Of a stretch of 64,000 nt of DNA, positions 6,237 to 57,132 are shown piece after piece. This DNA comes from an uncultured Alphaproteobacteria bacterium (GTDB lineage Bacteria; Pseudomonadota; Alphaproteobacteria; CAAGCB01; CAG-977), in assembly GCA_937912005.1 (NCBI GenBank), contig CALDOX010000015.1, forward strand, positions 180,303 to 244,302, in the 5' to 3' direction. Positions within the stretch are counted from its first letter, which is position 1. Each line of letters begins with the position of its first letter. Under the pieces are notes generated by a model. The model made no database searches. It worked only from the letters and a program-made list of their open reading frames with translations, and was not told the DNA's origin. A program made the translations under genes and the position numbers.

Positions 6237-7327
6237 TTTGCTTTCTCCGTCTTTTCGGCTGCCATTTTTTCCGCCAATTCCGCCACGATATCCGCGGCAT
6301 TTGCGGCATTAATCGGTTCTTTTTGCTCTGCGCGAACAAACAGCAGAGCCTTGCCGTTCCCGCCGCCGCATACGCCGATATCGGATTCACGAGCTTCGCC
6401 GGGACCATTTACAACGCATCCCATAACGGCGATTTTCAAAGGTTCGGAAATATGTTCCAAACGAACTTCCAATTCCTTGACAACTTTTTCAACATCAATG
6501 CCTCGGCGCGCGCATGTCGGGCAAGATACCAGACGAACGCCATGATAACGCAGCCCCAAAGTCCGCAAAATTTCAAAGCCGACTTTGATTTCTTCGGTAA
6601 CGTCCGCCGTCAAAGACACGCGTAAAGTATCGCCGATTCCATCCATCAGCAACGACCCTATTCCCAAAGCCGATTTAACCGTTCCGGCACGCAAACCGCC
6701 GGCTTCCGTCACGCCCAGATGCAGCGGATAATCGCATTGAGCCGCTAACAGACGATAAGCTTTCATCGTCATCAGGGTGTCGGAAGATTTCACCGAAATT
6801 TTGAAATTAAAAAAGTCGTTGTCCTCCAAAATCTTAGCATGTTCCAAAGCGCTTTCAACCATCGCTTCGGGACACGGTTCGCCATATTTTTCAAGCAAAT
6901 GTTTATCCAGAGAGCCGCCGTTGACGCCAATCCGCATAGAACAATTATAATCTTTTGCCGCTTTGATCACATCGCGGACACGTTCCGCAGAACCGATATT
7001 ACCCGGATTGATACGCAGACAAGCCGCGCCCGCTTCGGCTGATTCGATCGCGCGCTTATAATGGAAATGAATATCGGAAACGATCGGCACTTTAACCTGT
7101 TTAACGATTTCTTTCAGCGCCTTTGTCGATTCTTCATCGGGACAGGAAACACGAACAATATCCGCGCCGACAGCCTCCAACGACCGGATCTGCGCCACCG
7201 TCGCGGCAACGTCCGCCGTCGGCGTATTTGTCATGGATTGAACGGAAACGGGAGCACCGTCACCGACGGCAACAGATCCGACATACACGCGTCTGGAATG
7301 ACGGCGCTTAATTTCAGGCATATTCAT
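6233..7327 (-). CDS. ispG: 4-hydroxy-3-methylbut-2-enyl diphosphate synthase IspG (GcpE), MEP pathway.
   Basis: 364 aa. The N-terminus [28 protein letters not shown] and the C-terminal CPTCARRG...[11 protein letters not shown]e-S motif are diagnostic. Confidence 0.9.
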
Positions 7328-17414: not shown

Positions 17415-19391
17415 ATGGATTTATCGGTTTTCAATTTGCTGATGAGCACAAATCCGAACGCTGCCGCGGAAAACTTATTTCCAAGCGCGGTTCAGAACAG
17501 CGCTCCCGTTGATTCCGTCGATTCTTCAATAAAAACGGGAGAAGCATTCCTGCAGGCGCTGGATCAAGTCAGAACAGGAAAAACGGAAAAGAATGCCGAC
17601 ATTTTATATAATACGCTCAGCGCACGGGCAGACGCCGCCTCTTCTTTAAAAGATTTGAAAAAAGGAAATGCGGCTCCGGAAAATGTCAAAATTGTCAAAT
17701 TGCACATCAAACGCACCAGAGCCAGCCAAACTTTAAGAAAGCTGGATGAAGAAAAAGCGACGCCTGCTTCCGCGGCGCCCCAAAGCGGGAAAAAGATTCC
17801 CACACGGGAAAATATCGCCGCCGCACAAGAAGTCACGCCAATCCCGCAAGAACAGATCGACTTACAGGATGTTTCTTCCGCAGTCGTTCCCCAAACTTTT
17901 TCTTCTTCAGATTTTTTCATTGAACAGCCGGAAACTCCTTTTGTTTCAACCGATGAAATAACTGCGGCCGACATTCTGATCAATTCTGCCATTCAAGCAA
18001 CTCTGATGCCGTCGCCGCAAACACCGCAAACAACCGTTACAGAACAAGCGCCGGAAGCACACTCTTTATCCGCAGCGTTTTTGCCGCAAAAAGAAACGGT
18101 TTCCGATCCTGTTCGTTCGCAAACCGTTTTGCCCGATCAAAAACCGGAAATTCAGACAGAAACACAAACAGAGCCACAAAAAACACCGGTTTTTGCCGCT
18201 GTTGAAACACCTGTTCAAAAACAGGACAAGTTTACTTTTGCACCGGATCGGGAAAATATTGCCTCTGTCTCGAACAAACGGCCGGAAGAACATGCAAAAA
18301 CGGCGGAAATAAAGCAGCCTGAAGAAACTCAGAACGTTTTATCCGTCAAATCGAACGATCATAAGGCCGTTAAAGCGGCAGAAACACAAACAAAAGCAAC
18401 GCCGGAAACAGCCGCCGTTCCCCGTTCGGCTTCCGTTGACACGGTAAATGTTGAAGAAATTCAATCTGTTGATAAAGATTATTCTTCTCATCAAGCGCAC
18501 AGACAAGCGGAACAATTAGCGCATGAGCTGCCCGCGCAAACAAACATCGCGATCACGGTTCAAACACAAACGCCCGTCGTTCAAGAATTGACTTTACCGC
18601 ACAACGTTTCCCCGCGTTCTTCCTCTGTCAGAAAAGCGAAAGAGGCAGATACGGAACCAAAGGAATTAACAATTGAGAAAAAAGAAGATCAAATTTCCCC
18701 GGTTTCCGCAAAAGAATTAACGCTTCATTCCGGAAAAACGGAACATTTGCGTCCTTCCGCCCAGGAAATAACGCAAGAAAATCAACCAAACGTTCTGGCT
18801 GCTGCCTTGCCCGTTCAAAACAAAGTCCTGTCCGATTCTTCCCCGCTTCAGCAGGCAGACGGACAAACAGTGGAAATCAACACTCCGTCTGTTTCAACAA
18901 CTCCGACGGCAGCATTTTCCGTCGGTCACGAACTTAAAGGCAAAGCCGTATCCGGCTCCGTTCCCGTTCAAAAGAACATCCCGGTCAATGAATTGGCCGA
19001 TCAAATCAAAGTCAACATCAAAAAGGCGTTAAAAGACGGATTGGACAAGATCGACATCGTTTTGAAACCCAAAGAACTGGGCACGATCAAGATTCATCTG
19101 GAAATCGGCAAAGACGGTTCAATGAAAGCGATTTTAAGCACGGCGCGGGCTGAAACGCTCGACCTGCTGCAATCGGATTTAAGCGCGTTGAAACAAGCTC
19201 TGGCCGACAGCGGATTTGACCTGAATGATCAGTCTTTCAGTTTCAACTATCGCGGCGAACGCTACAACGACGAACACAGACAGCCGCATCCGCAAAACCG
19301 TTTCATCGCGGAAGAATCGGTTGACGAAACGGCAGAAACCGCAGGCACATTAAGCATTTCAGGGCGTTACGCTCTGAATATCAGAGTATAA
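17415..19391 (+). CDS. fliK: Flagellar hook-length control protein FliK.
   Basis: 658 aa with a long Pro/Thr/Gln-rich linker. The C-terminal Flg_hook domain reads IDIVLKPKELGTIKIHLEIGKDGSMKAILSTARAETLDLLQSDLSALKQALADSGFDL. It is immediately upstream of flgD-flgE. Confidence 0.75.
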   Translation: MDLSVFNLLMSTNPNAAAENLFPSAVQNSAPVDSVDSSIKTGEAFLQALDQVRTGKTEKNADILYNTLSARADAASSLKDLKKGNAAPENVKIVKLHIKRTRASQTLRKLDEEKATPASAAPQSGKKIPTRENIAAAQEVTPIPQEQIDLQDVSSAVVPQTFSSSDFFIEQPETPFVSTDEITAADILINSAIQATLMPSPQTPQTTVTEQAPEAHSLSAAFLPQKETVSDPVRSQTVLPDQKPEIQTETQTEPQKTPVFAAVETPVQKQDKFTFAPDRENIASVSNKRPEEHAKTAEIKQPEETQNVLSVKSNDHKAVKAAETQTKATPETAAVPRSASVDTVNVEEIQSVDKDYSSHQAHRQAEQLAHELPAQTNIAITVQTQTPVVQELTLPHNVSPRSSSVRKAKEADTEPKELTIEKKEDQISPVSAKELTLHSGKTEHLRPSAQEITQENQPNVLAAALPVQNKVLSDSSPLQQADGQTVEINTPSVSTTPTAAFSVGHELKGKAVSGSVPVQKNIPVNELADQIKVNIKKALKDGLDKIDIVLKPKELGTIKIHLEIGKDGSMKAILSTARAETLDLLQSDLSALKQALADSGFDLNDQSFSFNYRGERYNDEHRQPHPQNRFIAEESVDETAETAGTLSISGRYALNIRV

Positions 19392-19404
19392 GGGAGGAAA
19401 CGTC

Positions 19405-20142
19405 ATGACTACATCGGTAAGCGGAATAGACGTTTTAAACAAAGCCGTCAGCTCGGGAAAAGATTCCGGCAGCTCGAAAACGCAGCTGTTCGACGATATG
19501 GAAGCATTCCTCTTTTTGCTGACTCAGCAATTAAAATACCAGGACCCTTTGGATCCTATGGATACCAGCGAATACACCAACCAACTGGTCCAATACGCTC
19601 AGGTCGAACAAAGCATCCAATCCAACACTTATTTGGAAACGATCGTGGCGCAAAACGTCAATGCCGTTGCGACTCAGGCGGTCAGCTATATGGACCAGTA
19701 CATACAAGCCCTCGGCAGCGGACTGCCGCTGCAGAACGGAAGCGCTAAATTTTCCTATGTGTTGGGAGCCGACGCCTCTTCATGCGTCGTCGCCATCAAA
19801 GACGCGTCAGGAAACTTTGTGAAAAGCTTTACCGGTGTCGAACAGTCCGCGGGACGTCATGAAATGACATGGGACGGCAAAGACAATTACGGCAATCAGC
19901 TGGAAGACGGAGCTTACACACTTGTCGTAACGGCTCTGGATTCCACAGGTTCCTCTGTTGAAGTGCAGACGACCGTTTTCGGAAAAGTCACCGGTGTGGC
20001 TTATGACGGTGACAGCGTCGCCATCGGTATGGGCGGCATCGCCGTTGATATGAACAGCGTTCTGGCCATCCACAGCAAAGATGATGTTGTTTCAGCTTCG
20101 AACAACGCTTCTGAAACGGAAGAGGGAATACAAACGGTTTAA
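19405..20142 (+). CDS. flgD: Flagellar hook assembly/capping protein FlgD.
   Basis: The FlgD N-terminal motif (FLFLLTQQLKYQDPLDPMDTSEYTNQLVQYAQVEQ) and a C-terminal Ig-like domain. Confidence 0.85.
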   Translation: MTTSVSGIDVLNKAVSSGKDSGSSKTQLFDDMEAFLFLLTQQLKYQDPLDPMDTSEYTNQLVQYAQVEQSIQSNTYLETIVAQNVNAVATQAVSYMDQYIQALGSGLPLQNGSAKFSYVLGADASSCVVAIKDASGNFVKSFTGVEQSAGRHEMTWDGKDNYGNQLEDGAYTLVVTALDSTGSSVEVQTTVFGKVTGVAYDGDSVAIGMGGIAVDMNSVLAIHSKDDVVSASNNASETEEGIQTV

Positions 20143-20230
20143 TACAAGCCGATCAGAAAATTCGGCATAAAACGGCGCTTCTTTATACAGAAACGTAAAA
20201 AGAAGGCCAAAAGAAAAAAGGAGAATGACA

Positions 20231-33089: not shown

Positions 33090-35018
33090 ATGAGCAGCCC
33101 TACCGTTTCCCTTCAAAATTCGGGGCTCACTGCTCAAACGGCCGCGGCAGCGACGGTTGTATCCATTCCGGATGCGCCTGCGGAAATGCGGGAACTGCCC
33201 ACGGGATCAATTTTGCCGGCCGTATTCATTCCTGCCAAAACCGTATCGGAAATGCCGGTCATACAAATGACTTTGCCCGACGGCAAAGAATTGGCCGTTC
33301 CCGTCAAAAGCACGCATATGCTGCGCGTTCCGACACCGGTCAGCATAAAAATCCTGCCTTTCGACGCAAAAAAAACGATGACGGTCCGCGTCCACTTTTC
33401 AGCCCCTCTGCCCGATATCAAAAAAGCGATAAAAGACCTGCCGGAAGCTTTACAGTCACAAGACGCCACGGCTTCTTCCGTTCAAAAACATTCTATTCCT
33501 CTCAGAGCTTTCGTTCTGCGATCCGTTCCCGAACAAATTACAGCTTTGATGAATGAAATGGAATCTCCCGTCGAACAAAATCTGCCGCCTTTAAAACCGG
33601 AGCAAACCGTTCGATTGGAAATTTCTCCGCAATCGAATCAAACAATAAACGCATTAACAGAACATACGCGCCTTCCCGCTGTGCAGACGACAGATCAAAG
33701 CACTTTTCCCAATTCACCACCAAACACCGTTCCGGAAATATCCGAAACAAAGCCGGATTCTTTACCGTCCTTTTCGGCAAATACTTCCGTTTCAACACCC
33801 GAATCATCCGATATTTCTTCCTTTCCCGTAAAAGAAAGCGCTCCGGCTTCTGTTGTGCAATCAATACCGCGACAGGATATCCCCTCCTCTTTTCCGGCCG
33901 AAAATCAGGAAGCGCAAACATCCGTCATTTCTCCAAAAACGGAACCGGCATCGCCTTCCTTTTCTGTTCCACGAGAAAATCCGCCTGAAACCGTTTCACG
34001 GGCTTCTGCTCTCCCGACACAAACTCCCCCGGCTCTTTCCTTAGAAAAAAACGAACCGTTTATTAAAGATCATCCTCTGCCCCTTCCTGCGGAACCGGCG
34101 CCCGAACAAATCTCTTCCCCAACATCCTCATCTGCCGAAAAAACAACACAAATCTTGCCCTCTCCCTTCCCTTTAAAAGGAGTCGTTTTCGATTTTAAAG
34201 AACGCTCGGCTCCTCTGGTTATTACCAAAATAGGCGTATTGGCACTGGAAGAAAAAATTCAACTGCCGCATTTGACACCGGTCAATGTTCAAATTACGGA
34301 AATAGCCGAGCCGCCGGCATTCTCTTTAACGGAGCATACGGACAATCCCGTTTTCCGAGGAATTGAAGAAACGTTGAATTTGCTGCGGGACACGGATTCG
34401 GCATCGTTCGAATCTTTCAAAAACGCCCTGCCGCAAATCGGCAATAAATTGCCGGCGCAAATCATTTCTTTTATCAACACCGCTTCCCGAAACGTGCCGG
34501 TTTCTTCTTTTATCGGGGAATCAAGCGTCGTCGTATTGCAAAGTTTAGGTGAAAAGGGGCATAGTCTGCTTACTCAAATCGAAAAAGAAATCACCGCTTC
34601 ACCAAAAAAAGTCACGGATGGCCGAAGCTCTTGGAAAGGATGGACCGTTCCTTTTTTATCCGGCGCAATAGTCGAACCGGTTTCTCTTTATTTGCAAAAA
34701 CCGCACGAAAACGGCCACCGGCAAAAAGGAACAGTCTCCAAACCGAATGCCGTCCGTTTCGTTTTGGATTTGAATCTGACACGACTGGGCAATCTGCAAA
34801 TGGACGGACTGGCTCACCGCAGCGAGCGTCGGTTTGACTTGATCATACGCCATCAAAACGATTTGCCTGACGCTTTTGATGAAAAAATCCGTTTCATTTT
34901 CACACAGACTTTATCGGCGTTGAATTATACGGGAACGGTCAAGGTTGATCACACGGATCAATTTATCGTTTTAACTCAAGAACTTGAAACCGAATCAAAA
35001 CGGGGTGTTTGGGCGTGA
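33090..35018 (+). CDS. Proline/serine-rich protein with a FliK-like (Flg_hook) C-terminal domain. It may be a second length-control or flagellar accessory protein.
   Basis: 642-aa ORF. The central ~350 aa are Pro/Ser/Thr-rich and low in complexity. The C-terminal segment RFVLDLNLTRLGNLQMDGLAHRSERRFDLIIRHQND...IRFIFTQTLSALNYTG follows the L-x-L-x-LG-x-L pattern of the FliK C-terminal domain. The ORF is in-operon, 10 nt after fleN. Confidence 0.4.
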   Translation: MSSPTVSLQNSGLTAQTAAAATVVSIPDAPAEMRELPTGSILPAVFIPAKTVSEMPVIQMTLPDGKELAVPVKSTHMLRVPTPVSIKILPFDAKKTMTVRVHFSAPLPDIKKAIKDLPEALQSQDATASSVQKHSIPLRAFVLRSVPEQITALMNEMESPVEQNLPPLKPEQTVRLEISPQSNQTINALTEHTRLPAVQTTDQSTFPNSPPNTVPEISETKPDSLPSFSANTSVSTPESSDISSFPVKESAPASVVQSIPRQDIPSSFPAENQEAQTSVISPKTEPASPSFSVPRENPPETVSRASALPTQTPPALSLEKNEPFIKDHPLPLPAEPAPEQISSPTSSSAEKTTQILPSPFPLKGVVFDFKERSAPLVITKIGVLALEEKIQLPHLTPVNVQITEIAEPPAFSLTEHTDNPVFRGIEETLNLLRDTDSASFESFKNALPQIGNKLPAQIISFINTASRNVPVSSFIGESSVVVLQSLGEKGHSLLTQIEKEITASPKKVTDGRSSWKGWTVPFLSGAIVEPVSLYLQKPHENGHRQKGTVSKPNAVRFVLDLNLTRLGNLQMDGLAHRSERRFDLIIRHQNDLPDAFDEKIRFIFTQTLSALNYTGTVKVDHTDQFIVLTQELETESKRGVWA

Positions 35019-36070
35019 AGGATAAAAAAGGATACTACGCCATACTGCATGTTGATGAAACGGCCAGCGAAAAGGAAATAAAAAACGCTTTTCGCCGCGA
35101 AGTTAAACTGTATCATCCCGACAAAAACCATGATCCGAACGCCGGAGCAATCTACCTGAAAATTAATGAATCTTATCGGGTTTTAACCGATCCCGATGCC
35201 CGGAAAGCTTACGACAATCTGCCTGATGCCGCCGCCGATTTTATTCCTTGCTGTCTATGCGGCCGGCATGCGCATCAGCCGCGGTTCATTTTTTTTGATG
35301 TCGGTGAAAACATTTCGCAAGGCGGCGTATATTGCCGCCCCTGCGCTTCCCGTCGGCAATTCAAAGCCGCAATGAAAATCTGGAAAAAATTTCTGATTTC
35401 TCCGGTTAAAAGCTGGCGTTTGTTAAAGCAAGCCAGAGCCATGCGGGAACAACCCGCTGACAAAAACTTTGATATGCTGCTGCAAAACGCGGCGGCTTTC
35501 AACAGCGAAAAACGGTATGGTTTAGCAAAATTTCTGGCGGAACAGGCGCGGCGGTTCGCGCCCGATCAGCCGGAACGTGCGAAAGTCAATACGTTCCTGA
35601 ACATTCTTCCCGAAGCTCCGTACCGCTATGAACCGGACGAATGGAAAATTAAAGGAACGGATACACTGCGTGTTTACCTCCCTGTTTTTATCGGCATTCT
35701 GATTATTTTATTGCTTTTTTCTTTTCCGTATCTTCCGCGCTTATTACCGGATAATTCTTATGATTTGGCTGATTATGAACAGCAAAACGTTATCTTTTTG
35801 CCTTTCGGCCTGTCCGATGAAACTCAGCTGTATCATACTCGAAAAGACAATGTTTCCGCTTATCAGGCTCCCAGTACAAAAAGCGGTATTTTAGCTGTTT
35901 TACCGGCACAAACAACGGTCCGTATGACGGGATATGTACCGAAGACACCTTGGGTACAGGCGATGACGCATCAAGGCTTGATTGTCTTTATCCGCCGATC
36001 CGATTTGGAAAAAGGAGTCGGTGCGGAAAAAAAGCCTTACAATTCAAAAATCCTGCCGACAAAAGATTAA
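35009..36070 (+). CDS. J-domain (DnaJ-like) membrane protein with a Cys-rich segment and a C-terminal SH3-like domain.
   Basis: J-domain (YYAILHVDETASEKEIKNAFRREVKLYHPDKN). A CCLCGRHAH...CRPCAS Cys cluster, a TM helix (VFIGILIILLLFSFPYL), then a C-terminal region. Its TTG/GTG start overlaps the upstream stop, so it is translationally coupled to the flagellar operon. Confidence 0.65.
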   Translation: MGVKDKKGYYAILHVDETASEKEIKNAFRREVKLYHPDKNHDPNAGAIYLKINESYRVLTDPDARKAYDNLPDAAADFIPCCLCGRHAHQPRFIFFDVGENISQGGVYCRPCASRRQFKAAMKIWKKFLISPVKSWRLLKQARAMREQPADKNFDMLLQNAAAFNSEKRYGLAKFLAEQARRFAPDQPERAKVNTFLNILPEAPYRYEPDEWKIKGTDTLRVYLPVFIGILIILLLFSFPYLPRLLPDNSYDLADYEQQNVIFLPFGLSDETQLYHTRKDNVSAYQAPSTKSGILAVLPAQTTVRMTGYVPKTPWVQAMTHQGLIVFIRRSDLEKGVGAEKKPYNSKILPTKD

Positions 36071-37922: not shown

Positions 37923-40900
37923 CTACGCCTTTTCGATTTTGAACGTCACTGCCGCGTCACCGACATCTTCGGTATCGCCTTTCATATTCGCTTGTTCTTC
38001 AAACGAAACGGCAAGGACCTGTTCGGAAATGTACGCTTTGTTTTCCTTCAGGGCTTCCAGAACCGTATTATCGGCGGACGTGTAAGCCACCGTGATTCTG
38101 TCAGATACGTCAAAGCCCGAGTCTTTGCGTTTTTGCTGAATGACGCGCACGAAGTCGCGGGCGATGCCTTCGCGTTCCAGTTCGGGACGCAAGGTTACGT
38201 CCAAAACGACCACCGCCGTATTATCCGGCAGAGCCTGTCCCGCGTTGCCGTCTTTCAGGACAAGACGCAGTTCGAATTCTTCCGGCAACAAAGTCTGTCC
38301 GGCGATCGACAAAGTGCCGTCCGCGTTTTTCGACCAGTCGTTTGTTTTGGACGCGGCCAGAATGTCTTTCATGAACCGCCCCAAACGCTTGCCGACCAAC
38401 GGCGTGATGATGTAAAGCGTCTGATCGGCCAAATCGGAAACGTCTTTGCCGAACGCGACTTCCTTAACGTTTACTTCGTCTTTGATCAGGTCGATGTAAT
38501 CCGCCAGACGACCGGCATTGTTGCCCGCCACCGTCATGGAAGCCAACGGCAGACGGTTGCGCAGTTTGTGATCTTCGCGGATCGACTTCGCGGTCGAACA
38601 GACGGCGCGCACGAAGTCCATATCGGCGACAAGCTTGTCGTCCGCCGCAAAGGCGTTATAATCGGGATAATCCGTCAAATGGACGCTTTCCTCCCCCGTC
38701 AGGGCGCGGTAGATGTATTCGCACGTCAACGGCATCAGCGGCGCGATCGCCTTCGTCAGCGTTACCAAAACCGTATACAGCACGTCAAAGGCTTCCTGTC
38801 CGTTGGAAACGTCCCAGAAACGGGCGCGGGAACGGCGGATGTACCAGTTGTTCATCAGCTCCAGAAAATCGGACACGTCGGAACACGCGGCGACGATGTC
38901 GCAAGCATCCAGTTTTTCCGTCAGGCCTTTGACCAGCTCGCGCGTCTTTGCCAGAATATAGCGGTCCAGCACGTCTTTTGCCGTCGTCGTAAAGTTCGCT
39001 TTCAATCCTTCGGCGTTGGCGTACAGCGTGAAGAAGTAGAACGCGTTCCACAACGGAATCAAAGCCTTGCGGGACGACTTCGCGATTTCCTTGCCTTCGC
39101 GGTCGATCGACAGGTTGCCGCCGCGCAAAATCGGCGAGGACACCAAAAACCACCGCAGAGCGTCCGATCCCAGCGTGTTGAACACGTCGGTCGGATCGGG
39201 ATAGTTGCGCAGACGTTTGGACAGCTTTTGCTGATTCTCGTCCAAAACGACGCCGTGGCACAGACAGGTCTTAAAGGGGGCGCGATCAAACAGAGCCGTG
39301 CTCATCACCATCAGCGTATAGAACCAACCGCGGGTCTGCGCCAGATATTCGACGATGAAATCCGCCGGAGAATGGTTTTCGAACCATTCCTTGTTTTCAA
39401 ACGGATAATGGACCTGCGCGAACGGCATCGAACCGGATTCGAACCAACAGTCCAGAACGTCCTCGACGCGGCGCATCATCGACTTGCCGGTCGGATCGTC
39501 CGGATTCGGACGGACGAGCGTGTCGATGAACGGACGGTGCAGATCGGTTACTTTAACGCCGAAATCCTTTTCCAGTTCGGCGATCGAACCGTACACGTCC
39601 ACGCGCGGATACTTCGGATCGTCGGATTTCCACACGGGAATCGGCGTTCCCCAGAAACGGTTTCTGGAAATCGACCAGTCGCGCGCACCTTCCAGCCACA
39701 TTCCCATCGCGCCGTTTTTGACGTGTTCGGGGATCCAGTTGATCGTCTTGTTGTTTTCCACCATACGGTCGCGGAATTCAGTCACTTTGACGAACCAGCT
39801 GTTGATCGCCTTGTAGATCAGCGGCGTGTCCGTGCGCCAGCAGTGCGGATAGTTATGCTTGTACATTTCCTTACGAACCAATTTTCCTTCCGCTTTCAGG
39901 CGTTTGATGATCGGTTCGTTCGTTTCAAAGACCTGCATTCCTTCGTAATCCGGCACTTCTTTGGTAAAGCAGCCTTTGCCGTCAACGGGACAAATGACCG
40001 GAATGTCATACGGTTGGCAGGCGATCATATCGTCTTCACCGAATCCGGGGGCGATATGAACGATACCGGTACCGTCTTCGGTCGAAACGTAATCCGCCTG
40101 AATGATTTGGAAGCAGTTTTTCGTTCCCGCAAAGTAATCAAACAACGGCTGATAGGTGCGTCCGACCAAATCCGCGCCCCTGACCGTGCGGACTTTTTCC
40201 GCCTTGGCCAGTTCGCGCTTGTATCTGCCCGCCAACGCCTGCGCGATGACGTACTGAATGCCGTCCTCTTCGTAAACGTCGTAGTCGATATCCTTGTTGA
40301 CGCACAAAGCCAAATTGGACGGCAGGGTCCACGGAGTCGTCGTCCATGCCAACACTTTGACGGGCTTTGTTTCGCCTTCAACCGGATTCAGCGTGAACAT
40401 CACGGTTACGGACGGGTCTTCGCGTTCGCGGTACGAGTTGTCCATACGCGTTTCAAAGTTCGATACCGGCGTTTCGGCCGCCCAGCTGTAGGGCAAAATG
40501 CGGACGCCTTCGTACATCAGGCCTTTTTTGTACAGCTCTTTGAACGCCCAGATGATGGATTCCATATACGGCAGATCCATCGTTTTGTAATCGTTGTCAA
40601 AAGCGACCCAACGCGCCTGACGGGTAACTGTTTGCTCCCATTCGTTCGTGTACATCAGCACGCGTTCTTTGCACGTTTCGTTGAACTTGCCGATTCCGAA
40701 TTTGGAAATCGCGGCGCGTCCGGAAATGCCCAGAAACTTTTCCGTATCCATTTCCGCGGGCAACCCGTGGCAGTCCCAACCGAAACGACGTTCGACACGA
40801 CGGCCGCGCATCGTCTGATAACGGGGAATGATGTCTTTCACATATCCCGTGACCAAATGCCCGTAATGCGGCAGACCGTTCGCGAACGGAGGGCCGTCGT

Positions 40901-41060
40901 AAAACACATATTCGTTAGAGCCTTTTTCACCGGCGGCACGATTGTTGACGGACTTTTTAAAAGTGCCGTTCTCGCGCCAAAACTTTAAAATGTCTTCTTC
41001 CAAAGCCGGAAAATCGGCTTTCGGGCTGACTTCGGGATAATGTTTTATTTTTTCGGACAT
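37923..41060 (-). CDS. ileS: Isoleucine--tRNA ligase, type 2 (eukaryote-like).
   Basis: 1045 aa. N-terminus FYDGPPFANGLPHYGHLVTGYVKD (HIGH region) plus a KMSKS-type region. The length and sequence style match type-2 IleRS. Confidence 0.9.
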   Translation of the reverse strand: MSEKIKHYPEVSPKADFPALEEDILKFWRENGTFKKSVNNRAAGEKGSNEYVFYDGPPFANGLPHYGHLVTGYVKDIIPRYQTMRGRRVERRFGWDCHGLPAEMDTEKFLGISGRAAISKFGIGKFNETCKERVLMYTNEWEQTVTRQARWVAFDNDYKTMDLPYMESIIWAFKELYKKGLMYEGVRILPYSWAAETPVSNFETRMDNSYREREDPSVTVMFTLNPVEGETKPVKVLAWTTTPWTLPSNLALCVNKDIDYDVYEEDGIQYVIAQALAGRYKRELAKAEKVRTVRGADLVGRTYQPLFDYFAGTKNCFQIIQADYVSTEDGTGIVHIAPGFGEDDMIACQPYDIPVICPVDGKGCFTKEVPDYEGMQVFETNEPIIKRLKAEGKLVRKEMYKHNYPHCWRTDTPLIYKAINSWFVKVTEFRDRMVENNKTINWIPEHVKNGAMGMWLEGARDWSISRNRFWGTPIPVWKSDDPKYPRVDVYGSIAELEKDFGVKVTDLHRPFIDTLVRPNPDDPTGKSMMRRVEDVLDCWFESGSMPFAQVHYPFENKEWFENHSPADFIVEYLAQTRGWFYTLMVMSTALFDRAPFKTCLCHGVVLDENQQKLSKRLRNYPDPTDVFNTLGSDALRWFLVSSPILRGGNLSIDREGKEIAKSSRKALIPLWNAFYFFTLYANAEGLKANFTTTAKDVLDRYILAKTRELVKGLTEKLDACDIVAACSDVSDFLELMNNWYIRRSRARFWDVSNGQEAFDVLYTVLVTLTKAIAPLMPLTCEYIYRALTGEESVHLTDYPDYNAFAADDKLVADMDFVRAVCSTAKSIREDHKLRNRLPLASMTVAGNNAGRLADYIDLIKDEVNVKEVAFGKDVSDLADQTLYIITPLVGKRLGRFMKDILAASKTNDWSKNADGTLSIAGQTLLPEEFELRLVLKDGNAGQALPDNTAVVVLDVTLRPELEREGIARDFVRVIQQKRKDSGFDVSDRITVAYTSADNTVLEALKENKAYISEQVLAVSFEEQANMKGDTEDVGDAAVTFKIEKA

Positions 41061-41202: not shown

Positions 41203-44200
41203 ATGACGCAGGACACAGAAGCCGAATACAACTCGAATGCTTTTTCCGACGATACAAAAATGATGTTTTCCGAACAAAGCGGTTTGCCTGAACAAGTCAA
41301 ACCGCAAAAAACGGATAACAGCTTGATCGCCGCTGCCGCTTTAAGCATTGTCTGGGCCTTTTTGGTCATTGATTATCTGCTGTCCAGCGGTTGGTGGGCA
41401 GCACGTTTTGAAATGACTCCGCCCGAGTTTATGAGCATTATCGCCGGATCTTTGTCTCCGTTTGCTTTTATTTGGATTGCCGCCATTTATTTTTCTTCTC
41501 AGCGCAAATATGTCAAAGAAGCCCGAAAGCTGCGCAGTTATATTTTTGAATTTACGCATCCCAACGCCAAAAACAAATTATACGTCAAGTCCCTGTTGGA
41601 TGATATCCGCCAACAAACATCGGATTTAAACATTGTGTACGGCTTGTTGAAAGAATGCACAAACAACACGCAAAACGCTTTAAAAGACCGATTAAACGAT
41701 CTGAACCGCATTGTCGCCGCCCTTCAGGAAGACATCGAAACATCCGTTCATAAAATAGGGCAGCAAACGGAACTGCTTAACGAATCGTCCGTACAAATCA
41801 ATGAAAGAACAACAGAAGCTGCCGGATTGCTGGAAACGAACCTGACGGCCATTCAAACCGCAGCCGATCAATTTTCCGACCTGACATCTTCGGTTAATTC
41901 CGATTTGCAAACTGCTGTTCATCAACTGACCGAAACCGGCGATACGCTCTCCGACAAAACGCTGCGCATTTCTTCCGAAATTCGGGAACAACAAACATTA
42001 CTGCAAAACACCGCTGAAAACGTACGCGATATTATGACGCGTCAAACAGCCGCCGCAGCCGCGGAATTAAACCGTCAGAGCGCTTTTATTGTCGAAGCGG
42101 GGAATCGCATATTCGAGACAGTCAACCAACAATCACTCCGCGTCAAAGAGGCTGTTGAAAATCATGTAGCCGCCCTGACCGGCAGCGGCGAATCTATTGA
42201 AAATAATGTTTATTCCATTATCTCCGATTTAGAAACACAGATTTCTGTTCTGAACGATACGGCGCAATCCGCTCAAGACAACACGGAAAAAATGCTGTCC
42301 GGATTGGAACGGCGCATCAATATGCTTGAAGACCTTTTCAGCAAACAAATCGATACCGTTTCCGCCAACGACAAACAGCTGCTTGAAACAGCCGGACAAA
42401 TTCAAAACACCTTTAAAGAACAAAATGCGCTGCTGGATCAGGAAGCGGAAAAAATTATCACGCGTTTCAAAACGATTGAAACAACATTGGATACTTATAT
42501 TAATGAAATCAATTCGGCTTCGACAACCGCGATTGATCAAATTTCCGTCGTTTCCGAATCCCTGAGCGGAAAAGCGGGCCAGATTGCCGCCGTCGGCGAA
42601 CAAACCCGGACAGAAATATCGGCTGTTGACGAAGATATTTCAAACAGAGCCGGCCGTTTGACGGAAGCGGTTTCCAGATTGAAAGAACGGGCTGAAACCG
42701 TTTCGGCGGCTTTAACCGAGCATACTCAAAAACTGGCGGAAGCATTGGACGGCACAGAGCCGCGCTTATCCGCCATTCAGGAAAACATTCGGACAAGCCT
42801 TGCGGAACTGAACGACAACATAACCGCGACAGAAGAAAAAACGGAAACGGCTTGCCAGAAATTAATGAAGCAAAACAATGAGTTGTCAGATTTGACCGGT
42901 GCTTTGGTTTCTCAAGCGATTGTAACGGAAACATCTTTGGCTCAGCAACAAAAATACATTTCCAACGCTGCCGCAAAAATAGATGCGGCCAAAACCGATC
43001 TGAAAGAACAATCGACAGATTTGACGGATATTGCCGAATTGCTTGATTCGCGTGCGGCGGAAACGGTTTTGCGTCTGACCCGTTTATTCGAAGACACTCT
43101 GACGCAGTCCGGCAAAATCGTCGATCAGGTCAATACGCTGGATGCCAGCCTTTTAAGTAAAATCAACGCCTTGGATATGTCTTCGCAAAAGACGGTCATC
43201 GCCAACAATACGCTGCATGAAGAATTGGATCGCCATAAAGCGCTTTTGGACGCTTCCGCAAATCGGATGACCACCTACGCGGAAGAAATAAGCGCGGAAA
43301 TTGCCAGACAAACGACTCAAATGGATATTTCTTCCGAACTGATCCAATCCCGCTGTGAAAAAGTCGTTCAGCAAATTGACGAACAGTTCAGAAAATTAAC
43401 GGAAGACGCCCAAATTTTAATTGACAACACACAAAACGCTTCCACCGTGATGACGGATCAGTCCGAAAAACTTGAAACGCTCTTTAACCGGCAAAACTCA
43501 ACATTATCCGAAGTATCGGACAAACTGGCGGAACAAAGTTCTCAGGTTGCAACGATGCTTCGCGAACAATCCGAACAGGCGGATAAAGATTTGGAACGCC
43601 TTGTTTCCAGAATCAATTTAATTGAAGAAGGATTGAACGTTCAAACAAAAGAACTCTCCCACGCTTCCGAAATGACCATATCGCAGCTGGAAACCGTCGG
43701 AACAGCCTTAACGCGCCAAGCGGAAACATTGTCAACGCTCAGCGATGACACGAAGGAAAAAATAGCAGAAATCAGTTCTTCCGTTTCCGACGCCACGACA
43801 AAATTATCGGAAATGGCGCAGATCGCCTGCCAACGCAATTCCGAATCTTTATCCGCTTTGGAAGCCAAACAAAATGACTTTAAGCAATCCGCAGACGATT
43901 TGATGCAGAGAATCCTTGCTTTGCAGGATGAAATATCGCAGCAAACCGACAATTTGCAAAAACAGTCTGTCAAATCGACACAGCAAGCCGTTATGGTACG
44001 CGATTCCATGCAACGGCATATTGTTGATCTGGGAGACGTGGCCAATATCGTGGCAACGCAATCCCGTATGGGGGAAGCGGCGCTAAGCAATCAGATCAAT
44101 TATCTGAAAGAAGCGGCGGAAAACGTTATGACGCACATCCGAAGCATTAATGAAGCGGTTCGTCAGAATACAAACGATTTGTTGACCGCGTCTTCGCGAA

Positions 44201-45369
44201 TCGGTTTTGAATTGGATGCGATGGGTGAAAATTTGCGCCGCAGAAATGAGGAAGCATCCAAATCTGCCGAAGACAGTTTGGCCAGATCGCAGGCCGCCGC
44301 TCAATTTTTGGAAGAAAAAGCTATTCTTTTATCCGATATGACCGAACAGGTAACGAACAATCTGACGACGGCCGGCAATGAATTTTCAGCCCATGCCAAT
44401 ATGATCGAAGCTGCCGGACAAATCGCCAGGGAACAGCTGGAAACGACGGGAGAATCTTTCCTGGTTCAATCTCATCAGCTGACCCGTATTTCCGAAGACG
44501 CACAAAAGGCCGTTAAAAACCTGAGTATTGTTATGCGGGAACGGGCGGTTGATTTCAATAAAACCGCCGAAGAAGCCGGCGCCCGGGTACGCAGTATGAA
44601 TGATACCATCATACAGATCGAAAAAGAATTTGAAGAAATGTCAAACAAAGGCGTTATTCAAATTGACCTGGCCGGCCAGCGTCTGCGCTCCATGCTCAGC
44701 GAAGTGGCCGGAAATTCCGAACGCATTGCCGTTGAAGTGCGTAAATCCGGCGAACAGTTTGTCGATCAGTCGGATTTGTTGTCCGTCGCTGCGGATGACG
44801 CATTAAAACGGCTGCAGAATTTATTGAATATCATGCGTGAAAACGCCAAAGAAATTCAGGAATCCGGCGAAAAGATTTCGGCTCAGTCTCTGAAATTGGG
44901 CGGTGCGTTCAACAGACAGGTTCAGTCTTTGATTTCCGCCTCCCGATCGGCGGAAGAATACATTACCGCATTGGATAAAAGAAAAGAAGAAGCCGATACG
45001 GATCGTTTTATGAAAGAAGCCTCTTTTATTCTGGAAAGGCTGCAGTCTTTGGGTGTTGATATGGCGCGCATTTATACGCCAAATGTTGAAGAAGACCTTT
45101 GGAAACGGTATTATTCCGGCGACAGAAGCGCGTTTATTCGTCATCTGTCCCGCGCAGTCGACAAACAACAAGTACGAAAAATAACGGAAACTTTTACGGA
45201 AAACGCTGAATTCAGAGAATATGTTTCCCGCTATATTGCCGAATTTGACAGTATTTTATCCCGCGCTCAGGAAAATGAACGCTCTGATATTTTAACCGGT
45301 ATTTTGCTGGGCTCCGAAGCGGGACGTTTGTACATGCTTCTATCCAAAATCTTCAATAAGGAAGCTTAA
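41203..45369 (+). CDS. Large two-TM coiled-coil protein with TipN-like topology (candidate polarity/flagellar-placement landmark).
   Basis: 1388 aa. It has a ~40-aa cytoplasmic head and two TM helices (LIAAAALSIVWAFLVIDYLLS; IIAGSLSPFAFIWIAAIYF). About 1290 aa of Glu/Gln/Leu/Thr-rich heptad-like sequence follows, with no recognisable catalytic motifs. Confidence 0.45.
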   Translation: MTQDTEAEYNSNAFSDDTKMMFSEQSGLPEQVKPQKTDNSLIAAAALSIVWAFLVIDYLLSSGWWAARFEMTPPEFMSIIAGSLSPFAFIWIAAIYFSSQRKYVKEARKLRSYIFEFTHPNAKNKLYVKSLLDDIRQQTSDLNIVYGLLKECTNNTQNALKDRLNDLNRIVAALQEDIETSVHKIGQQTELLNESSVQINERTTEAAGLLETNLTAIQTAADQFSDLTSSVNSDLQTAVHQLTETGDTLSDKTLRISSEIREQQTLLQNTAENVRDIMTRQTAAAAAELNRQSAFIVEAGNRIFETVNQQSLRVKEAVENHVAALTGSGESIENNVYSIISDLETQISVLNDTAQSAQDNTEKMLSGLERRINMLEDLFSKQIDTVSANDKQLLETAGQIQNTFKEQNALLDQEAEKIITRFKTIETTLDTYINEINSASTTAIDQISVVSESLSGKAGQIAAVGEQTRTEISAVDEDISNRAGRLTEAVSRLKERAETVSAALTEHTQKLAEALDGTEPRLSAIQENIRTSLAELNDNITATEEKTETACQKLMKQNNELSDLTGALVSQAIVTETSLAQQQKYISNAAAKIDAAKTDLKEQSTDLTDIAELLDSRAAETVLRLTRLFEDTLTQSGKIVDQVNTLDASLLSKINALDMSSQKTVIANNTLHEELDRHKALLDASANRMTTYAEEISAEIARQTTQMDISSELIQSRCEKVVQQIDEQFRKLTEDAQILIDNTQNASTVMTDQSEKLETLFNRQNSTLSEVSDKLAEQSSQVATMLREQSEQADKDLERLVSRINLIEEGLNVQTKELSHASEMTISQLETVGTALTRQAETLSTLSDDTKEKIAEISSSVSDATTKLSEMAQIACQRNSESLSALEAKQNDFKQSADDLMQRILALQDEISQQTDNLQKQSVKSTQQAVMVRDSMQRHIVDLGDVANIVATQSRMGEAALSNQINYLKEAAENVMTHIRSINEAVRQNTNDLLTASSRIGFELDAMGENLRRRNEEASKSAEDSLARSQAAAQFLEEKAILLSDMTEQVTNNLTTAGNEFSAHANMIEAAGQIAREQLETTGESFLVQSHQLTRISEDAQKAVKNLSIVMRERAVDFNKTAEEAGARVRSMNDTIIQIEKEFEEMSNKGVIQIDLAGQRLRSMLSEVAGNSERIAVEVRKSGEQFVDQSDLLSVAADDALKRLQNLLNIMRENAKEIQESGEKISAQSLKLGGAFNRQVQSLISASRSAEEYITALDKRKEEADTDRFMKEASFILERLQSLGVDMARIYTPNVEEDLWKRYYSGDRSAFIRHLSRAVDKQQVRKITETFTENAEFREYVSRYIAEFDSILSRAQENERSDILTGILLGSEAGRLYMLLSKIFNKEA

Positions 45370-45542
45370 AAAAAACATCATTTCCGCGGCCTTCGGCAAA
45401 AAGAAAAGTTGTTTGTTTAATGTGTTTTGTCTTATGATAATGATCGGAAAACGAAAAAACGACAAAAAGACAGAAGCAATACATGCAACGCTTTTTTATC
45501 GGATAAATATATTTTTAAAGCTTATTTAACAGGAGAAATCAA

Positions 45543-45872
45543 ATGCAAATCGAAAAAACGCAGGAAGGTGATATTGTTGTTTTGAAGGTTATCGGCCAGC
45601 TGACATCGTCAACATCGCCTGCGCTGGAAACCGCTGTTAACGACGTTTTGAAAACGGAAAGCAATCTTGTTTTAGATTTTGCCGAATTGGATTTTTTGGC
45701 TTCCTCCGGTTTACGCGTCATTTTATCGACTCAGAAAAGAATAAACGCCAAAAACGGCGCGCTGGTTATCCGCAACGTCAATAAAGTTGTGATGGAAGTG
45801 TTTGAAATGACCGGATTGCGGGATTTTCTCAATGTTTTCCAGGGCAATCGGCAGATTTCCGGTTCAAAATGA
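45543..45872 (+). CDS. STAS-domain anti-sigma-factor antagonist (SpoIIAA/RsbV-like).
   Basis: 109 aa. LDFAELDFLASSGLRVIL is a typical STAS phospho-serine region. Strong RBS (AGGAGA). Confidence 0.8.
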   Translation: MQIEKTQEGDIVVLKVIGQLTSSTSPALETAVNDVLKTESNLVLDFAELDFLASSGLRVILSTQKRINAKNGALVIRNVNKVVMEVFEMTGLRDFLNVFQGNRQISGSK

Positions 45873-45920
45873 CGGAATTGCGGGAAATTATCAATATCCA
45901 CTAACAGATCGGGACACACG

Positions 45921-48218
45921 ATGCTCGAAAAAAAAGCCCCCTCTTTGCACCGCGTTTTTCAAGCGTGGTTGTTGTTGTTTGTCTTTATCGCTTTTTGCAT
46001 CATATTCGGCCTTTCGTATTTCTTTCAAACGCGTTCGGCTCAAAATATGATGATGCGTCAGGCGGTTTTACATTTGGATTATATCGGCAATCAGGTCAAA
46101 ATCATTGAAGACGATTTAAAAGATCTGAAAAAAGAATTAAGCAACGGTTTGGTTGAAAAAGCCCGTGTTTTTGCCATGCTTTTGAAAAATGCGCCGATAT
46201 TGCTGCATAATAAAAACTTTTTGCGTGATTGGAGCAAAGACGCGGGAATAGAAGAAATCAGCATCCTTGGCAAAGACGGCATCGTGATCGAATCTTTTCC
46301 GGAAAAATTCATCGGCACCGATTTTAAAGAATACGATCTGATGCACCCCTATTTACCGTTGATTAACAAGAACAACGGCGTTTATATCGAAGATTTGCGC
46401 ACCAGTTATAACAAAAGCGGCAGCGTTAATTCGTTGGTACAATTTGTCGGCGTATCACGTTTGGATGCTCCCGGCGTCATTCAGATGGGGTATTCGGCCG
46501 AACGATATGCCGAAGCATTAAAAACGGCGTCCGCCGACGTTTTAGCCGATGATTATATTCTGGGAAAAGACGGTTTTATCATTATCTCAAAAGACGATAA
46601 AATTATCAGCGCCGGACATAAAGAGTTAAAAGGAACGACTTTGACGGGTTCCGATTGGAACTTCATCAAAGATATGCCGGAAAATCAGATTTTATTAAAA
46701 AATTCCGTTTTCCTGATGTCACGACAAATTGATTCTTATCGTTTAACCGCCGTCATGCCGAAAAGCGATGTTTACGCCTTCCGCAATACGATTTTATCGT
46801 GGGCGGCTCTCGTTTACATACTTCTGCTGTTCATCGTGTACGTTTTCCTGTCGGCATTATTGGAGCGGGTCGTCGTCCGCGGGATTGAAAAAACAAACAC
46901 GACATTGGAAAAAATTACCGAAGGAAACCTGAACGAAAAAGTCGATGTGCATTCGAATCTGGAATTTGTTTCTCTGTCCAACGGCATTAACACAATGGTT
47001 GACACGTTGAAAGAAGCGATTGCCGAAGCAGCCGCCCGTTTGGATAAGGAATTGGAATTTGCCCGAGAAATTCAACATGCCGCTTTGCCGCGCATATTTC
47101 CGCCGTATCCCAACAAAAACGAATTCGATATTTTTGCATCAATGACGGCGGCAAAAGAAGTCGGAGGCGATTTTTACGATTTCTTTTTATTGGGACACAA
47201 CGGAAGTCATATCGGCATCGTCATTGCCGACGTATCCGGAAAAGGAATTCCGGCTGCTTTGTTTATGATGTCCGCCAAAACGCTAATCAAAAATTTTGCC
47301 GAAACGGGAATGTCGCCCGCAGAAATTTTTTATCATACAAACGAAAAATTATGTGAAAACAACGAAGCCGGCATGTTTGTAACGGCGTTTATGGGGATAT
47401 TGGAAATCGAAACCGGCAAATTCACCTATGTCAATGCGGGACACAATCCTCCGTTGATAAAACGGGCGGACGGCGGTTTTGAACGAATGACGTTAAAACC
47501 TGGATTTATGTTGGGCGCTCTGGATTCTTTTGCGTATCAACAGAGCGAAACATGTCTGGACGGCGGCGACACCATATTTTTATATACCGACGGTGTTACG
47601 GAAGCTCAAAATAAAAACCTGGAATTGTTTGGAGACGATCGTTTGCGCGACGTTTTGAACGAAAACGCTGATAAAGCGCCGAAAGAACTGCTGACAGCCG
47701 TGCATAAAGCGGTTGCCGCGTATGTTGACGGCGCGGAACAATCCGATGATTTAACTATGCTGGCTTTGACATATCATCCGAAAACGCTGACCGTTCCCGC
47801 TGAAATCGAACATCAGGACGACGTTATGAACTTTGTTGACGAGATGTTGAAAAAAGCCTCCGCATCGCCGGAAACCATCGCCAAAACGAATATCGTGTTG
47901 GATGAAATTTTTACCAACATCTGTCATTACGCATATGCGCCGGCCAAAGGAACAGCGACGATTCGTTGTTGTGTCGGCGGAACGCCCGCTTTTATGTCTT
48001 TGGTATTCCGCGACAAAGGAAAGCCGTTTAACCCGTTGAACAAAGCGGATCCTGATATTACGGCAAAAATAGAAGACCGTGAAATCGGCAATCTGGGCAT
48101 TTTTATGGTAAAACAGATCATGGATTCCGTCGAATATGAATACAAAAACGAAGAAAACGTGCTGACCATGGTCAAACGTTTGGAAACCGCTTTGAACGAA
48201 AAACAGCCGATTGATTAA
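45921..48218 (+). CDS. Fused partner-switching protein: membrane sensor, HAMP, PP2C (SpoIIE/RsbU) phosphatase and an RsbW-like GHKL serine kinase, all in one polypeptide.
   Basis: Two TM helices flank a ~250-aa periplasmic domain, followed by a HAMP-like helix. Next comes the PP2C domain (VGGDFYDFF...GIVIADVSGKGIPAALFM...LYTDGVTEA). Last comes a HATPase_c_2 domain (N-box DEIFTNICHYAY, G-box GNLGIFMVKQ). Confidence 0.75.
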   Translation: MLEKKAPSLHRVFQAWLLLFVFIAFCIIFGLSYFFQTRSAQNMMMRQAVLHLDYIGNQVKIIEDDLKDLKKELSNGLVEKARVFAMLLKNAPILLHNKNFLRDWSKDAGIEEISILGKDGIVIESFPEKFIGTDFKEYDLMHPYLPLINKNNGVYIEDLRTSYNKSGSVNSLVQFVGVSRLDAPGVIQMGYSAERYAEALKTASADVLADDYILGKDGFIIISKDDKIISAGHKELKGTTLTGSDWNFIKDMPENQILLKNSVFLMSRQIDSYRLTAVMPKSDVYAFRNTILSWAALVYILLLFIVYVFLSALLERVVVRGIEKTNTTLEKITEGNLNEKVDVHSNLEFVSLSNGINTMVDTLKEAIAEAAARLDKELEFAREIQHAALPRIFPPYPNKNEFDIFASMTAAKEVGGDFYDFFLLGHNGSHIGIVIADVSGKGIPAALFMMSAKTLIKNFAETGMSPAEIFYHTNEKLCENNEAGMFVTAFMGILEIETGKFTYVNAGHNPPLIKRADGGFERMTLKPGFMLGALDSFAYQQSETCLDGGDTIFLYTDGVTEAQNKNLELFGDDRLRDVLNENADKAPKELLTAVHKAVAAYVDGAEQSDDLTMLALTYHPKTLTVPAEIEHQDDVMNFVDEMLKKASASPETIAKTNIVLDEIFTNICHYAYAPAKGTATIRCCVGGTPAFMSLVFRDKGKPFNPLNKADPDITAKIEDREIGNLGIFMVKQIMDSVEYEYKNEENVLTMVKRLETALNEKQPID

Positions 48219-56399: not shown

Positions 56400-57086
56400 C
56401 TAACCTTCTTTTTTCGGTTCGCGCAAAACGTAGCCGCGTCCCCAAACGGTTTCGATATAATCGTCCCCGCCGGTCGCTTCGGCGATTTTTTTGCGCAATT
56501 TGCAGATGAACACGTCAATAATCTTCAATTCCGGTTCGTCCATACCATTATACAGATGATTCAGGAATTGTTCCTTGGACAGTGTCGTTCCTTTCGACAG
56601 CGACAAACGTTCCAGAATACCGTATTCGCGGCCGGTCAGATGCAGCGGCTTGCCGTTGACGAACGCTGTTCTGGTATCCAGATTGACTTCGATCGCTCCG
56701 GTACGGATAACCGATTCCGGATGACCTTTCGACCGGCGAACCAAAGCGCGGATACGAGCGACTAATTCCGCCTTGTCAAACGGTTTCGTCAGATAATCGT
56801 CCGCACCGGTGGACAATCCCTTAACCTTTTTATCCGCGCCGGACAAACCGGACAGAATCAAAACAGGCGTGCTGATTTTAGATGCGCGCAGCCGCTTTAA
56901 CACTTCATATCCGTCCATATCCGGCAGCATTAAGTCTAAAATGATGATGTCGTAATCGTACAGCTTGCCGATTTCCAAACCGTCTTCACCCAAAACGGTC
57001 GGATCAACAACCATTCCTTCCTTATGCAGGACGGCTTCGATCGTCTGAGCCATCGCCTTGTCATCTTCAACCAATAAAACGCGCAT
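56400..57086 (-). CDS. ctrA: Cell-cycle response regulator CtrA (OmpR family).
   Basis: 228 aa, near-collinear with Caulobacter Ctr[10 protein letters not shown]..., D51 in [17 protein letters not shown], and a C-terminal [15 protein letters not shown]...[11 protein letters not shown]. Confidence 0.9.
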
Positions 57087-57116: not shown

Positions 57117-57132
57117 TTAACTTCTTATTAAC
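57117..57132. promoter_or_regulatory. CtrA box (TTAA-N7-TTAAC) in the divergent ctrA/fliI intergenic region.
   Basis: TTAActtcttaTTAAC lies about 30 nt upstream of the ctrA ATG on the opposite strand and about 130 nt upstream of fliI. Confidence 0.55.

Follow-up and report, generated by a model that had tools for sequence, protein, structure and literature searches.

What does a membrane-anchored, almost wholly helical protein of 1388 amino acids (aa) do in an uncultured alphaproteobacterium of the gut? The protein is encoded in a stretch of 64,000 nucleotides (nt) from contig CALDOX010000015.1 (assembly GCA_937912005.1, positions 180,303 to 244,302; GTDB lineage CAG-977), hereafter called the window, by an open reading frame (ORF) that starts with an ATG at position 41203 and whose stop codon ends at position 45369 of the plus strand (1388 codons). 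An identical protein is also encoded on the JGI metagenome contig Ga0139362_1003300, and the gene is far beyond a chance ORF because it is conserved in 29 genome loci. A preliminary description of the window, made from the letters alone, had listed this ORF at exactly these coordinates, which translation confirmed, and had proposed for its product a polarity landmark similar to TipN of Caulobacter.

To our knowledge, unipolar growth in Rhizobiales has no known organizers other than GPR and RgsE, and we know of no mechanism by which they act. In the analysis reported here, the window gene is read, with a probability of about 0.6, as a divergent branch of the GPR/RgsE superfamily whose product is probably a polar scaffold. 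Three results are firm: the end modules are homologous, the rod has a 25/7 periodicity, and its length is nearly invariant. As far as sequence comparison can tell, what defines the family is a pair of homologous end modules and, between them, a rod that is not homologous and has a fixed length and 25/7 periodicity. Polar localization, oligomeric state and the scaffold's clients are inferred.

Homology of the Two End Modules

The GPR protein forms a ring at the growth pole of Agrobacterium, and its C-terminus is essential for its function (PMC8262873), while RgsE is a polar protein that binds TolQ, RgsA and RgsS (PMC7327166). When 5.8 billion proteins were searched by word index with the window protein, seven full-length metagenomic relatives of 53–71% identity were returned, together with five Rhizobiales-type giants (P0008–P0012) of 1124–1516 aa with precomputed apolipoprotein Pfam hits, whose match is limited to the final ~105 residues of the window protein. 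The C-termini of the window family and of the Rhizobiales-type proteins form a gapless alignment of 116 residues, 19 of which are invariant. For GPR (Atu1348), the sequence was taken from the text of Fig. S3 of Zupan et al. (2021, PMC8262873) by optical character recognition (OCR), which gave 2099 of the 2115 aa. In BLASTP, aa 1276–1386 of the window protein match residues 1988–2097 of GPR (coordinates of the OCR text) at 32% identity with an E value of 3e-12, and hhalign of the C-terminal domain against GPR-type proteins gave 99.4% (E 1.3e-21), compared with 0.6% for the reversed-template control. The alignments show homology of this domain to that of Agrobacterium GPR and its Rhizobiales relatives. 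AlphaFold2 (AF2), given 49 sequences, models it as a bundle of seven helices with a predicted local distance difference test score (pLDDT) of 91.2 and a predicted template modeling score (pTM) of 0.85. A HMMER scan of 1.84 billion representatives found the domain in 2284 clusters, 1780 of them at E <= 1e-10, and in nearly all matches listed it ends at the last residue of the protein or within a few residues of it. The domain is in neither Pfam nor NCBIfam; no Pfam domain was recorded on fragments consisting of it alone, and no solved structure related to it was found.

The N-terminal module gave a similar picture. When a profile of 28 family members, including a subgroup of 21% identity, was compared with a profile of 32 GPR-type proteins, hhalign gave 94.9–95.7% (E 1e-8 to 4e-8), against 0.4–1.2% for reversed controls. 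The invariant W51 in the first transmembrane (TM) helix is aligned by hhalign with the Ser-x-x-Trp of TM1 in GPR, the second TM helix is aligned with TM2 of GPR through Pro86, and a P-x14-[IV]-R motif is in register between the window protein, THPNAKNKLYVKSLLDDIRQQT, and GPR, AEPETVASDRIMSVGQAVRREV. Seven residues of the periplasmic loop (G63, W64, W65, R68, T72, P73 and E75) are invariant in the window protein and its seven relatives of 53–71% identity, and they shrink to W65, P73 and E75 once the 21%-identity subgroup is added. By these alignments, the TM hairpin and the juxtamembrane segment are homologous to those of GPR. A search seeded with the N-terminal module returned only fragments of the window protein's own family.

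Only two 19-aa Kyte-Doolittle peaks are of TM grade, namely aa 41–59 (2.23) and aa 79–97 (1.90), and past aa 110 no 19-residue mean exceeds 1.2. A topology with both ends in the cytoplasm fits the protein, since clusters of Lys and Arg precede TM1 and follow TM2. The cytoplasmic part has a net charge of -65, and the 1278 aa after aa 110 hold three prolines (120, 520 and 1293). No P-loop or Walker A motif ([AG]x4GK[ST]) was found in the protein, and scans of its whole length with Pfam, NCBIfam and PADLOC brought no family past its threshold. The short head with two closely spaced TM helices and the lack of enzymatic motifs, both put forward in the preliminary description, were thus borne out: hydropathy gives a 40-aa head and a TM pair with a 17-aa loop between the helices, and there is neither a P-loop nor a Pfam or NCBIfam family above its cut-off.

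A Rod of Fixed Length Built on a 25-Residue Repeat

Between the end modules, the hydrophobicity of aa 111–1270 has a sharp Fourier peak at 3.575 residues, that is 25/7, with a power of 13.7, while the power at a period of 3.50 is at background (z = -0.4). The autocorrelation of the rod reaches z = 12.3, 9.5, 8.5, 8.3 and 6.8 at lags of 25, 50, 75, 100 and 125 residues. When the family alignment is folded into a frame of 25 residues, the core positions are 3, 7, 10/11, 14, 17/18, 21 and 25, a pattern of two heptads and one hendecad (7-7-11) with 25/7 = 3.571 residues per turn. The phase of the repeat is nearly constant from aa 126 to aa 1250, with a single shift at aa 285–320, so that the rod behaves as ~46 in-register repeats, and the 3.575 periodicity is kept in every family member analyzed. 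The earlier picture of ~1290 aa of uninterrupted heptad-like sequence needs two corrections: the heptad is at background, and the last ~120 aa are globular.

As a single continuous helix (0.1485 nm per residue), the ~1155 residues of the rod would measure an estimated ~171 nm. An AF2 model of aa 99–1298 is ~97% helix by DSSP, with helices of up to 325 residues; its pLDDT of 49 and pTM of 0.22 make the tertiary fold unreliable, and the secondary structure alone was used. The hydrophobic stripe is narrow: strong core residues come about once per turn, and 27% of the residues are hydrophobic. This is typical of a coiled coil and not of a class-A amphipathic lipid-binding helix. Charge periodicity of the myosin or intermediate filament type was not above that of shuffled sequences in the rod.

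The length of the protein was compared in 28 sequences (the window protein and 27 full-length ORFs of other loci). It is 1374–1392 aa in 26 of the 28, and one ORF (L025), whose call starts at an upstream ATG, has 1412 aa. Pro86, invariant in 28 of 28, and Pro1293, which is likewise invariant and lies inside the C-terminal domain, stand 1207 residues apart in 19 of the sequences; in six the spacing is 1211, in two it is 1203, and in one it is 1208. The sole indels are of 3–4 residues, about one helical turn, even at 21% identity. The idea of compensating -4/+4 indels proved wrong, as the two indels belong to different genomes. The near-invariant spacing at such low identity suggests selection on how long the rod is and on its helical phase, as would be expected of a spacer or strut.

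The closest analogy for such a regular non-heptad rod is the CC51 repeat of the Streptomyces polarity protein Scy, in which 51 residues make 14 turns and heptads and hendecads are mixed (PMC3718342). Like the window protein, Scy is a giant bacterial coiled coil associated with polarity and has a long-range regular non-heptad repeat, but it is cytoplasmic without a TM anchor, its repeat is 51/14 (3.64) and not 25/7, and the two share no domain, so that the likeness is one of analogy only. A full-text literature search for a coiled coil with a "25-residue repeat" returned no paper; the search was a narrow one, from which it does not follow that the repeat is novel.

A long membrane-tethered coil could also serve purposes unrelated to the pole, such as a ZorA-like defense tail, an SMC-like or other chromosome tether, a chemoreceptor-like sensor or an apolipoprotein-like lipid binder. 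Some sub-threshold matches lean this way, namely a ZorA tail in PADLOC (E 8e-10, 35.9 bits), the SMC coil of TIGR02168 (35.5 bits against a cut-off of 567) and ApoLp-III (20 bits against 36.3). However, every weak match is confined to the coil, and those to ApoLp-III, CTD10, SMC, the ZorA tail and LmuB were rejected as compositional. The ZorA match covers only the tail (316–648 of 699), Pfam finds no MotA/ExbB domain, and the adjoining genes are ileS and a STAS gene, not zorB. The protein lacks a Walker A motif and the head and hinge of SMC proteins, no MCPsignal (PF00015) match was found at E <= 0.01, and the narrow hydrophobic stripe fits a coiled coil better than a lipid binder. Furthermore, both end modules match GPR specifically. 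The domain scans gave no clear homology to a methyl-accepting chemotaxis protein or to an SMC protein, either of which the preliminary description had set as grounds for giving up its proposal; they already largely refute a pole-unrelated coil, and we hold it to be very improbable.

Hosts and Comparison With GPR and RgsE

A scan that took one genome for each GTDB species found 29 homologous loci, all of them in metagenome-assembled genomes (MAGs) of uncultured Alphaproteobacteria from rumen, horse feces and human gut, including "Acetobacter sp. CAG:977" and "uncultured Rhodospirillaceae". We take these hosts to be members of the GTDB order RF32. The proteins of five loci (L030–L034) form the subgroup of 21% identity. 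One locus (L017, CAVCSV010000005.1) is titled Limosilactobacillus gorillae, yet it carries alphaproteobacterial ileS, the target gene, rpoH, fliI and ctrA at 51–94% identity to the window, and its title is probably a bin contamination or a mislabel.

The window protein resembles GPR in its two N-terminal TM helices within a homologous hairpin and juxtamembrane module, in more than 1000 aa of continuous, phase-coherent amphipathic helix, and in the homologous domain of ~115 aa that ends at most 1–2 residues from the C-terminus. The two differ in what stands before and between these modules. In 41 other full-length representatives of the GPR type, ~70–260 aa precede TM1, whereas the head of the window protein has 40 aa. 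These representatives also have a Pro-rich linker (4–15% Pro) before the C-terminal domain; in the window protein, P1293 is the sole Pro from aa 521 to the end, and such a linker is therefore absent. No match to the apolipoprotein family PF01442 was found in the window protein, in which ApoLp-III stays below its cut-off as given above. The length of the family is nearly fixed, in contrast to the GPR type, which ranges from 949 aa in the shortest representative to 2115 aa in GPR. The periodicity of GPR, of four of the five giants P0008–P0012 tested and of the 41 representatives is of the hendecad type (3.635–3.665).

Several of these and other points weigh against an assignment to the GPR/RgsE superfamily and a polar role. 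The rod has a period of 25/7 (3.575) where the GPR type has the 11/3 hendecad (3.65–3.66), and the protein has neither the PF01442 repeats nor the Pro-rich linker nor the long N-terminal extension found in GPR. Between the rod (aa 700–1262) and the 600 residues before the GPR-type C-terminal domain, hhalign gave 97.6% forward and 96.6% reversed. A homology of the rods was rejected as coiled-coil background because the reversed control scores alike, and a full-length hhalign match (99.2%, aa 978–1383) therefore owes its real signal to the C-terminal domain. The GPR sequence compared was that read by OCR (2099/2115 aa), the AF2 monomer model of the rod has a pLDDT of only 49, and all members of the clade come from uncultured MAGs. 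Finally, the gene neighborhood, described below, lends no functional support.

If the homology extended to the role, the window protein would assemble into a growth-pole ring and organize unipolar synthesis of peptidoglycan and membrane, like GPR, whose loss makes cells round. The end modules argue for this, as both have homologues in GPR/RgsE, one of them being the C-terminal domain, without which GPR does not function. However, the periodicity of the rod is different, and the apolipoprotein-like domains, which GPR needs for its function (PMC8262873), are absent. Distant homologues of RgsE have been reported in Emcibacterales and Rhodospirillales without the other Rgs proteins, and their role might differ (Krol et al., PMC7327166). 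The hosts of GPR are polar-growing Rhizobiales, which are described as lacking the Rod complex (PMC8546619), whereas the window, from a gut alphaproteobacterium, encodes a RodZ homologue in the canonical context rodZ-ispG-hisS. This result covers the 64-kb window alone. The RodZ homologue points to a Rod-type elongasome in a lineage also carrying a GPR-like protein, and because the genome encodes it, the clients of the scaffold are probably not a unipolar growth machine of the Rhizobiales type. A role identical to that of GPR is accordingly judged unlikely.

Gene Neighborhood

The features of the gene and of the window are collected in Table 1. The preliminary description had placed the gene between the flagellar operon and the partner-switching/rpoH locus, with ctrA about 11 kb away. 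The order of the genes and the distance to ctrA are correct, whereas direct adjacency to the flagellar genes is not: the flagellar cluster lies at 17.4–33 kb (fliK-like, flgD, flgE, fliF, fliG, fliH, flbD, flhA, flhF and a MinD-like flhG), and three unrelated minus-strand genes, for a DUF2726 protein, an aminotransferase and ileS, stand between it and the target gene.

Table 1. Features of the target gene, its product and the surrounding window (positions in nt of the window).
Feature	Position	Strand	Basis or remark
Whole gene, 1388-aa membrane-anchored giant helical protein	41203–45369	+	ORF list and translation; stop codon included
Short cytoplasmic head, aa 1–40	41203–41322	+	Poor conservation, 0.38–0.45 per 25-aa block
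TM helix 1, aa 41–61	41323–41385	+	Kyte-Doolittle peak; invariant Trp51; aligns with GPR TM1
Periplasmic loop, 17 aa, aa 62–78 (SGWWAARFEMTPPEF)	41386–41436	+	Conserved residues
TM helix 2, aa 79–98	41437–41496	+	Kyte-Doolittle peak; invariant Pro86; aligns with GPR TM2
Juxtamembrane module, aa 99–140, P120-x14-I135-R136	41497–41622	+	Alignments and hhalign in register with GPR
Rod, aa 111–1265, ~46 repeats of 25 residues (7-7-11)	41533–44997	+	Periodicity, autocorrelation, AF2 helix content
C-terminal globular seven-helix domain, aa 1266–1388	44998–45366	+	Alignment, BLASTP, hhalign, AF2; hallmark of the GPR/RgsE superfamily
hisS	4971–6236		Beside ispG; E. coli-like rodZ-ispG-hisS order
ispG	6233–7327		Adjoins rodZ
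rodZ homologue	7335–8360	-	HTH_25 75 bits, RodZ_C 44.6 bits
FlgE hook protein, 1081 aa	20225–23470	+	Matches FlgE family models
642-aa ORF without family match	33090–35018	+	Overlaps next ORF by 10 nt
353-aa protein, DnaJ (J) domain only	35009–36070	+	Follows 642-aa ORF
Isoleucyl-tRNA synthetase ileS, type-2	37923–41060	-	DUF5915 C-terminus; full-length MupA/MupB similarity below cut-offs
STAS antagonist, then HAMP-PP2C (SpoIIE)-RsbW-like kinase fusion	45543–48218	+	Partner-switching module, between target gene and rpoH
ctrA	56400–57086	-	Above curated cut-off; 11 kb from target gene

As a clue to function, the conserved synteny was rejected. In the closer clade, the divergent ileS neighbor and the downstream rpoH are kept throughout and the flagellar cluster is often found upstream, while partner-switching genes occur only in the window and in two other loci (L001 and L008). 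In L030–L034, the target gene is flanked by trkH on one side, metG lying farther upstream, and by dus-trkA-hflX on the other, and no flagellar, ileS or rpoH neighbor of it was found there. Because the adjacency is lost in this subgroup, it looks like genome colinearity within the clade.

No CtrA box was found upstream of the target gene. Full CtrA boxes (TTAA-N7-TTAA) occur twice in the window, at 45515–45529 and 57117–57131, against a chance expectation of 2.4; both are in promoter-like intergenic regions, the former 14 nt upstream of the STAS gene and the latter between the divergent ctrA and fliI. A scan for promoters and terminators stayed at background level, and an Rfam scan of the window gave no hits.

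Some neighbors deserve mention in their own right. The hook protein FlgE is more than twice as long as the FlgE profiles (402–505 positions), with a very large insert between its conserved N- and C-terminal segments. The 642-aa ORF and the J-domain gene close the flhA-flhF-flhG cluster and accompany it in many related loci (L006–L027), and their products may be lineage-specific flagellar accessory proteins. The type-2 class to which ileS belongs is associated with intrinsic insensitivity to mupirocin. In locus L002, a cluster of genes for cell shape and the cell cycle stands near the GPR-like gene, downstream of rpoH at 17727–21341 (pgpA, a DUF5930-M23 peptidase gene, bactofilin, TrcR and GapR).

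Resemblance to TipN

TipN, the landmark of the new pole in Caulobacter crescentus, has two TM helices, a periplasmic linker of ~15 aa and a large cytoplasmic coiled coil, and it binds Tol-Pal; it is presumably ~500 aa shorter than the window protein. As an orthologue or analogue of it, the window protein would mark the new pole as a birth scar, place the flagellum and orient the ParA-driven segregation of the chromosome. The architecture is indeed the same, with a TM pair, a short periplasmic loop (17 aa) and a cytoplasmic coiled coil, and the host, like Caulobacter, is a flagellated alphaproteobacterium that encodes CtrA and a component of the Rod system, RodZ. In addition, components of Tol-Pal are contacted by both TipN and RgsE.

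Several points speak against this reading, however. Searches seeded with the N-terminal module reached only the window protein's own family, nothing named TipN was among the matches of the protein and family searches run, and the account of RgsE homologues by Krol et al. (PMC7327166) names Emcibacterales and Rhodospirillales but does not mention Caulobacterales. Neither an EAL/TipF-like protein nor PflI was found among the window ORFs of at least 150 aa that were scanned, a few ORFs in 1–15 kb and in 62–64 kb being unscanned. FlhF and a MinD-like FlhG make up a flagellar placement system independent of TipN, and both are encoded in the window. The proximity to flagellar genes, finally, is lost in the distant subgroup. 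We therefore doubt that the protein is a TipN orthologue or functional counterpart. Of the TipN-like label, the architecture stands, while the homology found is to GPR/RgsE; the broader proposal of a polarity landmark remains reasonable by analogy, as the closest characterized relatives are pole-localized scaffolds.

Proposed Function and Meaning

By analogy with these relatives, a self-assembling polar or septal scaffold is the most likely function of the window protein as a GPR/RgsE-type protein. The TM hairpin with its short conserved periplasmic loop anchors it in the inner membrane, and the rod would form a long, weakly left-handed coiled-coil oligomer, acting as a rigid spacer or strut that fixes the distance and azimuth of the C-terminal domain from the membrane anchor. 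The protein may assemble itself at the cell pole or at a recent division site, as do GPR, RgsE and TipN, possibly through contacts of the hairpin and loop with envelope machinery such as Tol-Pal, and polar functions would then have the assembly as their scaffold or landmark. Because the window encodes RodZ, we favor a landmark or structural role over the organization of unipolar growth.

A bolder and rather doubtful extension is that the rod is a ruler of fixed length (~170 nm) and that the hairpin and the C-terminal domain are an ancient, not yet described alphaproteobacterial cassette for pole scaffolds, joined by rods specific to each order: hendecad rods in Rhizobiales, 25/7 rods in the gut lineage and possibly a shorter one in TipN. 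If true, this would unite the landmarks of growth poles and of new poles as one superfamily.

Whichever clients the scaffold may have, the end modules have been kept in a RodZ-encoding lineage outside Rhizobiales, while the rod has been replaced by one of another periodicity, which suggests that the hairpin and the C-terminal domain are the conserved functional parts of the superfamily. The apolipoprotein repeats would then be dispensable for its ancestral role. The C-terminal domain, present in 2284 clusters with neither a Pfam or NCBIfam entry nor a solved relative, gives a defined target for solving a structure and identifying interaction partners. The near-invariant length of the rod, with 1203–1211 residues between two invariant prolines even where identity is 21%, is a rare feature that marks a ruler or strut, and it offers a hypothesis that can be tested.

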